A DNA stretch of 64,000 bases from Spirochaetia bacterium (lineage in GTDB: Bacteria > Spirochaetota > Spirochaetia > UBA9216), in NCBI GenBank assembly GCA_965140585.1, contig OZ223265.1, positions 192,001 through 256,000 of the forward strand, given 5' to 3'. The notes beneath the pieces were generated by a model that did no database searches, was not told the origin of the DNA, and worked only from the letters and a program-made list of their open reading frames with translations. Position 1 is the stretch's first letter. Each line of letters begins with the position of its first letter. The position numbers were made by a program, and so were the translations under genes. Positions 9,739 to 28,131 of the stretch are shown in pieces.

Positions 9739-9769
9739 TTAGGGCTCCCGCTTAATATAAAAAAAAATA

Positions 9770-9843
9770 CAGGCCAGGTAGGATTCGAACCTACAACATC
9801 CGGTTTTGGAGACCGGCGCTCTAGCCGTTGGAGCTACTGGCCT
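9770..9843 (-). tRNA. tRNA-Trp (CCA)
   Basis: AGGCCAGTAGCTCCAACGGCTAGAGCGCCGGTCT-CCA-AAACCGGATGTTGTAGGTTCGAATCCTACCTGGCCTG cloverleaf; CCA end not encoded. Confidence 0.97.
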
Positions 9844-9852
9844 GTATATAAT

Positions 9853-10029
9853 TTACTTAATTTTTGATTCCTTATGAAGAGTATGCTTATTATCCCACTT
9901 ACAGTACTTCATAAGCTCGAGTTTTCCCTGCATATTTCGCCTGTTCTTTTTTGTAGTATAATTACGGCGATTGCATTCTTCACATTTCAGCGCTATAAGC
10001 TCTACAGCACCTTTATTTTTTTTAGCCAT
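9853..10029 (-). CDS. rpmG: 50S ribosomal protein L33 (58 aa)
   Basis: Below the ORF-track cutoff; translated by hand: [58 protein letters not shown]; AGGAG SD. Confidence 0.97.
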
Positions 10030-10057
10030 TTAAAGCATCTCCTATTTTCACTAGTAT

Positions 10058-10130
10058 AGCCTCCGCCCGGACTTGAACCGGGGACCCCCACCTTACCATG
10101 GTGGTGCTCTACCGACTGAGCTACAGAGGC
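10058..10130 (-). tRNA. tRNA-Thr (GGT)
   Basis: GCCTCTGTAGCTCAGTCGGTAGAGCACCACCAT-GGT-AAGGTGGGGGTCCCCGGTTCAAGTCCGGGCGGAGGCT cloverleaf. Confidence 0.97.
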
Positions 10131-27771: not shown

Positions 27772-27800
27772 TTGACAGAATCCCGTAATACCATTATATT
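27772..27800 (+). promoter_or_regulatory. sigma70 promoter of tRNA-fMet
   Basis: TTGACA-N17-TATATT. Confidence 0.85.
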
Positions 27801-27815
27801 CCTCATACACTACGA

Positions 27816-27888
27816 CGCAGGGTAGAGCAGCTGGCAGCTCGTCGGGCTCATAACCCGGAGGTCGCAGGTTCGAATCCTGTCCCTGCTA
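27816..27888 (+). tRNA. initiator tRNA-fMet (CAT)
   Basis: Cloverleaf with C1:T72 mismatch and three G-C pairs in the anticodon stem (GGG-CTCATAA-CCC). Confidence 0.97.
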
Positions 27889-28067
27889 AATTGTTTAACG
27901 GTTGTCCCTAATAAGGATGACCGTTTTTTTATGTCAGATTCGAACCGGAATGAGCGCCGAGCGAAAGCGGGGGAAGTCCGACACGAAGTCGGACGCCAGC
28001 GAATGAAGGCGGCCTGGAATGTTGAGGCAGGAGGCCGAGACATGTAAGGCGAATCCTGTCCCTGCTA
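27871..28067 (+). mobile_element. 179-bp non-coding element integrated at the tRNA-fMet 3' end
   Basis: 18-bp direct repeat CGAATCCTGTCCCTGCTA at 27871-27888 and 28050-28067; each copy is followed by its own terminator; GC-rich hairpins inside. Confidence 0.75.
27897..27930 (+). terminator. terminator after tRNA-fMet
   Basis: AACGGTTGTCC-CTAATAA-GGATGACCGTT plus T run. Confidence 0.8.
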
Positions 28068-28074
28068 TAGTTTG

Positions 28075-28108
28075 AAGTTTATTCGGTTTTGACGAATAAA
28101 CTTTTTTT
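28075..28108 (+). terminator. second terminator, after the duplicated tRNA 3' end
   Basis: AAGTTTATTCG-GTTTTGA-CGAATAAACTT plus T run. Confidence 0.75.
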
Positions 28109-28131
28109 ATACCCTGAAACAAAGAGGTAGT

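Follow-up and report, generated by a model that had tools for sequence, protein, structure and literature searches.

The initiator tRNA locus

The window, the whole 64,000-nt stretch analysed here, carries a tRNA-Met(CAT) gene at 27816-27888 on the + strand (ARAGORN; Rfam tRNA model, 59.9 bits). Reading of the sequence gave a C1xU72 mismatch and a GGG/CCC anticodon stem, the marks of a bacterial initiator tRNA; CCA is not encoded. Two repeats tie this gene to the DNA behind it. An 18-nt exact direct repeat, CGAATCCTGTCCCTGCTA, lies at 27871-27888 and again at 28050-28067 (start-to-start spacing 179), and GGTTCGAATC (27867-27876) and GATTCGAACC (27937-27946) form a 10-nt exact inverted pair, which taken alone is weak evidence because six of its ten bases are the self-complementary TTCGAA. 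The terminator scan returned two hairpins, 27897-27925 and 28074-28104, against a mean of 0.8 in shuffled sequence. The initial annotation had placed the tRNA, both terminators and both repeats correctly, and the hairpins that it named are present and all belong to the conserved fold described below. The features, all on the + strand, are as follows.

27772..27800, +: promoter-like site of the tRNA gene, TTGACA, 17-nt spacer, TATATT (11 of 12 consensus positions)
27816..27888, +: initiator tRNA-Met(CAT), without encoded CCA (ARAGORN, Rfam)
27871..27888, +: first copy of the 18-nt direct repeat, tRNA T-loop C56 to discriminator (repeat scan)
27897..27932, +: terminator 1, hairpin 27897-27925 and T run (terminator scan)
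27937..27946, +: left arm, reverse complement of tRNA positions 52-61 (T-loop and T-stem), 5' strand of helix P1 (repeat scan, family alignments)
27947..28049, +: conserved core, a three-way junction (MAFFT alignment of 18 units; 92 hits, covariation; folding)
27950-27955 with 27999-28004, +: core helix P2, with tandem G.A/A.G
27956-57 with 27995-96, +: core helix P2b
about 27958-27973, +: core hairpin hp1
27976-27994, +: core hairpin hp2, loop ACGAA
about 28007-28014, +: single-stranded core segment AGGCGGCC, near-invariant
28012-28015 with 28047-28050, +: core helix P3
28023-28039, +: core hairpin hp3, loop AGGAG
28050..28067, +: right arm, exact second tRNA copy from C56 to discriminator; 3' strand of P1 and acceptor 3'-strand tail
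28074..28110, +: terminator 2, hairpin 28074-28104 and T run (terminator scan)

The promoter layout ahead of the tRNA is repeated in relatives, and terminator 1 is 91% identical to its counterpart in one of them (G010) up to TATGTCA. The closing helix P1 of the window copy has only 6-10 bp, with an imperfect extension back to about 27931, and the acceptor-strand tail of the right arm does not pair with the left arm. On the + strand the segment folds at -51.3 kcal/mol (z = -2.85), a value equalled by none of 200 shuffles; on the - strand z is -0.85 and 38 of 200 shuffles equal the native value. In the minimum-energy fold the tail CCCUGC (28060-28065) is not free and pairs with GCGGGGG of the hp1 region (27966-27973), a predicted pairing that may be peculiar to the window copy or due to chance.

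Nothing unusual flanks the locus (the genes there encode ClpB, a PrsW protease, a NUDIX hydrolase and a chemoreceptor), and no recombinase or integrase gene was found inside the unit, that is, the arms with the core, or in its flanks. Contigs from sequencing runs X1 and X2 cover the full locus and those from X3 the left flank and tRNA only. The related strain in X2 differs by 6 changes in 113 nt of the element (27944-28047) and by 2 in 383 nt of flank, counts that may include sequencing errors since the contigs have a depth of 2; among the element changes are one at 28031, a near-invariant G of a loop, and one at 28047, in P3. Contigs of the RNA run X19 hold the tRNA alone and say nothing either way about transcription of the element.

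A family of gene-less elements behind tRNA genes

A DNA search with the segment in 40 relatives (41 genomes including its own) matched the interior part in many other places, and each interior match that we fetched lay directly 3' of a tRNA gene for Ser, Leu, Ala, Arg, Gly or Met. Relatives of the core are hosted by tRNA-Ser, Leu, Ala, Arg, Gly, Asn, Pro and Met genes and by one tmRNA gene. At least 20 tRNA species are served by a single core family. In the window's own genome (G000), a BLAST-type search with the interior found only itself and a profile HMM then added two copies, giving three copies at 3 of the 46 tRNA genes: the window copy, one behind tRNA-Leu(GAG) on contig 9 and one behind tRNA-Arg(TCT) on contig 5, the last truncated and without a right arm. 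The contig 9 copy (347675-347813, - strand; L004 1472-1610) has a 16-nt hairpin, GGAGAACCTTCGGTTC, that interrupts the right arm close to where T-stem and acceptor meet; the G010 ortholog of this copy (L037) has no such insert and a different core subtype.

We built a covariance model, R1, from 18 units. Run on the whole window it matched only the unit (125.6 bits), and the tRNA-Trp and tRNA-Thr genes of the window (9769-10130) are without a unit by this model. R1 found the element in 51 of 151 genomes of the same class (36 of 88 genera) and in 22 of 151 genomes across the phylum Spirochaetota, other classes included; these counts are samples, in which 'not found' does not mean absent. Three loci from other classes that we read were all built alike. 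Carriage went by family: all six genomes had the element in each of families f1 and f9, and none of six in each of f2, f6 and f8. The largest copy number was 25 in one genome. An exact 18-mer scan of 185,579 species' genomes gave at least 120 stretches, and among the matches listed 80 loci were put through R1; four were true, all from spirochaete records; the rest, 76 loci, came from other phyla and matched by chance.

The 92 R1 matches make up 59 sites or arrays, 48 of which lie 11-94 nt 3' of a co-oriented tRNA gene (in one case the tmRNA gene). The remaining 11 comprise two at locus edges, five later units of arrays interrupted by other inserts, one behind a 5'-truncated tRNA-Leu, and three with no tRNA in the stretch examined. 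Units behind tRNA or tmRNA genes are always oriented as the tRNA is. The spread of distances to the tRNA end rules out a CAST-like fixed insertion distance from the T-loop. At the tmRNA gene (tag ANENEADYALAA; L067 1106-1642, genome G143) one unit sits 48 nt downstream, with arms that fit the tmRNA T-arm.

Positions 27937-28067 hold one member of this gene-less family, whose elements measure about 115-135 nt, and the stretch is neither a chance arrangement nor the end of a decayed island. That the family is real, structured and linked to tRNA genes we regard as secure.

A conserved three-way junction

The two arms form P1, which closes a junction of two further branches: P2 encloses the variable hp1 and hp2, and P3 encloses hp3. 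The near-invariant AGGCGGCC lies unpaired between P2 and P3, and hp2 and hp3 share the loop pattern C-A-(C/G)-G-A-N-G. Covarying pairs were seen in the MAFFT alignment of 18 units, which is independent of the R1 alignment. In the 92 matches aligned to the model, 85.0% of cells were paired, compared with 60.6% in shuffles (none of 500 reached the observed value) and 30-38% when partners were slid, although this alignment leans towards structure because it was fitted to the model. Changes on both sides were found at 30 of the 35 pairs.

On the tRNA-sense strand of the same alignment G.U pairs outnumbered A.C pairs, 98 to 51, which favours this strand as the one that folds. Of 85 distinct rows, 54 carry the tandem G.A/A.G in P2, and most of the remaining rows have Watson-Crick pairs there. 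Some units have extra hairpin modules at helix ends. A module of about 45 nt (CCGAGCAG, a hairpin, CGACCAGGG) lies inside the right arm of every unit of an array at tRNA-Pro(CGG) (L192 590-2100, genome G072), and in another genome it lies between left arm and core (L034, about 830-880). It has the look of an expansion segment that can move.

Arms tailored to the neighbouring tRNA

The right arm was identical to its own tRNA over a median of 18 nt, as against 5 nt for other tRNA species, and the own tRNA was strictly the best match in 44 of 47 units. Right arms start at T-loop C56 or G57 (37 of 47 begin 16-18 nt before the called tRNA end), and in the tRNA the copied segment is always preceded by GGTT. 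The duplication always begins in the T-loop, is 18 to over 80 nt long, and has a variable end point, -12 to +46 nt relative to the 3' end of the tRNA. Of the 47 units, 27 have a right arm that ends within -1 to +2 of that position, and in eight the identity extends 28-64 nt past it, through the terminator or trailer. Where tRNA clusters lack terminators, identity reaches the insertion point exactly (for example, 24 nt including 6 nt of trailer). A unit is usually followed by a terminator or a copy of the tRNA trailer.

The left arm reads as the reverse complement of two parts of its host tRNA, the T-loop and the 3' side of the T-stem, with an exact match of median 11 nt (range 4-19) compared with 5 nt for other tRNAs. 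The own tRNA was strictly best for only 19 of 47 left arms, because several tRNAs have common T-arms. We found no sign that the left arm pairs with the acceptor strand of the right arm: energies were -5.3 kcal/mol with the own and -5.1 kcal/mol with other right arms (P = 0.41, 36 units). Since non-cognate controls behave alike, low 3' overhangs are not meaningful. The right arm is nevertheless perfect out to the discriminator, though the left arm leaves its acceptor part unpaired, and neutral duplication does not explain this. In one locus (L034) the second unit has a left arm that matches the tRNA of the first unit and a right arm that matches its own.

Arrays, empty sites and truncated copies

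Tandem arrays are common, with 2-5 near-identical units repeating every 177-190 nt or so. Five units stand behind tRNA-Asn in G072, whereas its congener G096 has there the tRNA, one terminator and the same downstream gene with no unit. The single terminator of G096 resembles the tRNA-adjoining terminator of G072, so at tRNA-Asn the units sit behind the native terminator. Similarly, tRNA-Ser(TGA) and tRNA-Ser(GCT) are 27 nt apart in the window's genome, whereas in G024, where a unit lies between them, the distance is 159 nt.

Copies truncated at the 3' side, with left arm and variable 5' core only, often stand at array ends and at solitary sites. We noted seven examples (contig 5 of the window's genome, L035, L010, L033, L213 and two in L216); informal reading of the loci, which was not a systematic count, turned up no 5'-truncated copy. 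The last right arms of arrays are often shortened. Between two genera, the contig 9 copy of the window's genome and the L037 copy of G010 have near-identical terminators, spacers and left arms with different core subtypes. Copy number shifts quickly: units form arrays, some sites are empty, some copies are truncated, and core subtypes have been exchanged between orthologous sites.

Terminators do not travel with either neighbour. By sequence reading, terminator types followed neither the preceding nor the following core subtype, and at tRNA-iMet sites terminator types and core subtypes assort independently. The terminator 2 type of the window (TTATTCGG...CCGGATAA-like) adjoins tRNA-iMet or trails a unit in G004 and G006-G008. 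In most arrays a terminator precedes each unit and no promoter-like site lies between, which argues against strong transcription of distal units. A tree of the core (107 columns) was poorly resolved, with clustering by genome and subtypes common across families, and so says nothing decisive about donors.

Partner proteins and known families

We looked for proteins that might act on the element. TnpB (PF07282) was found in none of the 51 element-bearing genomes and in 5 of 151 overall, which excludes it as a partner. Reverse transcriptase (RT) is not obligatory, being present in 24 of 51 carriers and 25 of 100 non-carriers and absent from 27 of 51 carriers, and neither is Y1 transposase (21 of 51 carriers, 25 of 100 non-carriers). 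One genome, G006, has 12 copies with neither RT nor Y1. These co-occurrence tallies assume the identical 151 genomes each time, and the family tallies agree. Thus, we found no autonomous partner of the kind a MITE has among TnpB, Y1 and RT in carrier genomes. No RT gene lay beside any unit that we read, so the units lack the adjacency of a retron or defence-RT ncRNA.

Rfam 15 recognised only the tRNA, both in the whole window at the gathering score and in 27780-28130 at E up to 10, and likewise only tRNAs in seven related loci. A hammerhead ribozyme was considered, as P2 has the U-G-A[helix]G-A-A arrangement with tandem G.A, and was rejected: 7-8 extra nt precede P3, C3/U4/G5 are not kept in the alignment as we read it, and Rfam gave no match. 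On reading the arms, the R''/R' boxes of integron attC sites (RYYYAAC/GTTRRRY) were absent. Full-text literature searches turned up nothing like the element, nor did passages of two papers on structured RNA motif discovery (PMC8040213, PMC8632094).

Short, palindromic, tRNA-linked elements, termed tRIP-like, have been noted in enterobacteria. Set beside the general descriptions of other known systems, the family has a likeness to several. Like the att repeats of tRNA-integrating islands and CIMEs, it has a direct repeat of the tRNA 3' end from the T-loop on, uses tRNA and tmRNA targets, accumulates in tandem and supplies a terminator. Unlike them, the unit has no integrase, is 130 nt long, combines one folded core with fitted arms at many tRNA species, includes an inverted T-arm copy, and in one clear filled/empty pair leaves the native terminator at the tRNA. 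MITEs and REP/BIME, Correia and ERIC repeats are also small, gene-less, multi-copy and foldable, with inverted ends, and vary among relatives. Their ends are element-specific, however, whereas those of the units are copied from the neighbouring tRNA; the units lack a fixed-length target-site duplication, having instead a variable one (18 to over 80 nt) from the T-loop whose end varies, their position and orientation are strictly tied to the tRNA, and an autonomous partner was not found among TnpB, Y1 and RT.

Among RNAs, mascRNA, bacterial YrlA, the tRNA-like domain of tmRNA and RNase P external guide sequences share a helix and 3' tail that mimic the acceptor/T-stem side of a tRNA. The unit differs in mimicking a specific neighbouring tRNA, in having a three-way junction in place of the T-loop and a mostly unpaired acceptor strand, and in matching no Rfam model. 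Integron attC sites and cassette arrays resemble it in a one-strand fold kept more than the sequence, in arrays downstream of one fixed site and in variable hairpins; the unit has conserved unpaired motifs and no GTTRRRY/RYYYAAC box, and its 'attI' would be a tRNA gene. By these descriptions the family departs in a defining feature from att repeats, MITEs and tRNA-end mimics, and probably from attC sites, and is previously undescribed.

A proposed selfish structured repeat and the alternatives to it

We favour, with about even confidence, a selfish, non-autonomous, structure-dependent repeat that trails tRNA genes and perhaps works through a folded single-stranded form. That form would be recognised by machinery encoded elsewhere, either as read-through RNA from the tRNA promoter or as single-stranded DNA. 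New copies would be laid down from the tRNA side rightwards, with the right arm produced when the tRNA 3' segment is copied anew or recombined at the T-loop, and arrays would lengthen and shorten by recombination between this segment and the tRNA. Membership of a family placed behind tRNA genes, the matched arms, the covarying fold and the turnover of copies speak for such a repeat, as do the changes in the X2 strain (6 in 113 nt of element, 2 in 383 nt of flank; depth-2 contigs). Other observations speak against it: whole families carry or lack the element, which fits a vertically kept functional RNA too; strongly conserved unpaired motifs and modules inserted at the ends of helices are what functional RNAs usually show; no partner protein emerged among TnpB, RT and Y1; the terminators ahead of most array units disfavour strong transcription of the distal ones; the right arm is perfect to the discriminator without left-arm pairing there; and the indications of which terminator is native conflict.

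A fuller version of the selfish-repeat reading is offered tentatively. The element would find tRNA and tmRNA genes by pairing of its short arm with the T-arm, copy the tRNA 3' end as a second arm and multiply with external machinery; its active form would be the three-way-junction RNA or single-stranded DNA, possibly a pre-tRNA mimic that borrows processing or replication enzymes. Such an element would represent a new class of genetic element without protein genes.

The main rival, which we consider rather doubtful, is a host-useful ncRNA, putatively made by read-through transcription from the tRNA promoter and released by tRNA-maturation enzymes, whose copies multiply by local duplication only. 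P1 with its tRNA-identical 3' tail would mimic the acceptor/T-stem side of the neighbouring pre-tRNA, as an external guide sequence or mascRNA does. The covarying fold, its G.U excess on the tRNA-sense strand and the alternation of tandem G.A with Watson-Crick pairs in P2 would all suit an RNA with a function. So would the constant orientation, the right arm kept perfect and ending at the tRNA 3' end in over half of the units (27 of 47), presence that follows clades, and the unit behind a tmRNA gene; arrays in another class have no terminators between units and could be one transcript. This rival accords poorly with a genome in which only 3 of 46 tRNAs have a unit, one of them truncated, with presence that differs between congeners, with the strong terminators ahead of most units, and with the X2 strain altered at near-invariant positions. 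The helix is also often too short for a substrate of RNase P or RNase Z, because the left arm generally has no pairing to the acceptor strand.

A miniature integrative element, or its scar, moved in trans by a tyrosine integrase with crossover in the T-loop, appears improbable. It would be akin to cis-mobilisable elements with attL and attR at their ends: terminator 1 and the first copy of the repeat would be element-borne, and the right arm and terminator 2 would be the displaced native end. The direct repeat that bounds the unit is as a tRNA-targeting integrative element would have it (18 nt exact here, own tRNA best in 44 of 47 units), spanning the classic identity block from T-loop to tRNA end; tRNA and tmRNA genes are classic integrase targets, and tandem accretion occurs. 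On the native terminator the evidence conflicts. The terminator 2 type stands directly behind tRNA-iMet in G006, G007 and G008, and the tRNA-iMet terminator types in the window and G004 would fit a displaced native flank, whereas at tRNA-Asn the terminator that adjoins the tRNA in the filled G072 is homologous to the only one present in the empty G096. An integrase-like reading frame does lie right behind another tRNA-iMet in G004, but none is in or beside the window's 130-nt unit. A plain integrase scar is unlikely because one core serves at least 20 tRNA species with fitting arms, unlike a site-specific attP, because covariation and G.U pairs point to a single-stranded fold and not to a duplex site, and because duplications pass the tRNA end, by 28-64 nt in eight of 47 units and by exactly 6 nt in tRNA clusters.

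A guide RNA of a TnpB/Cas12-type system, with the core as scaffold, the right arm as 3' guide and GGTT as adjacent motif, or an IS200/IS605 derivative, is scarcely credible: a scaffold followed by an 18-nt target-identical 3' segment and the constant GGTT do fit the layout, but the absence of PF07282 from all 51 carriers contradicts it, Y1 transposase is in only 21 of them, and no Rfam model matched.

The initial annotation had proposed an element integrated into the tRNA by an integrase, with the anti-T-loop serving in target recognition and an HUH nuclease as a possible partner, and had named as tests homologues behind other tRNAs, arms that co-vary with the host tRNA, and empty sites. That interpretation holds in part. 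The family, the matched arms (medians of 18 against 5 nt on the right and 11 against 5 nt on the left) and the empty sites (G096 at tRNA-Asn; the 27-nt Ser-Ser spacer) were all found, and the flanking genes, with no recombinase among them, exclude the decayed larger island that it had named as the refuting outcome. Its mechanism found less support: the clearest filled/empty pair keeps the native terminator at the tRNA with the units behind, the left arm of the second L034 unit fits the neighbouring tRNA and not its own, and a Y1 transposase accompanies the element in fewer than half of the carriers.

A selfish structured repeat or not, the family amounts to hundreds of unannotated, strongly structured repeats behind tRNA genes throughout a phylum, which would now receive a name and a model. 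Its architecture, in which a single conserved fold carries arms fitted anew to each adjacent tRNA, is apparently new, and bears on why tRNA genes attract mobile DNA and on the target choice and spread of gene-less elements. If the units act as RNA, they would represent a novel mimic of tRNA ends, connected with tRNA maturation; if they act at the DNA level, they would use a new mode of targeting, by structure or pairing. For annotation of tRNA flanks, the covariance model tells units from integrase scars.

Other candidate elements at such sites

Four loci of genus g13 (L222, L224, L030 and L016) contain a different small structured repeat (...GCAGCCCAA..TTGCGGCAG, a hairpin, GAGAGCAAG.GCAG...), which is found within units, next to them, or separating a tRNA from its terminator. 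It may be a second element family. The integrase-like frame in G004 begins directly behind a second tRNA-iMet gene with the T-loop GAGTC (contig 41; L013 1720-1906), and this locus is an ordinary island that also adjoins an initiator tRNA. Elsewhere, cores unrelated to that of the family occur behind like left arms in like places: L014 1645-1745 (G007), L012 from 2235, L011 (reverse complement) 1665-1740, and L189 1680-1790 and L196 560-650 (G072). At least three sequence types are represented, one with GCGTACCGCAGCGGCA...GCCGATG, and the arm logic may be common to several core families.
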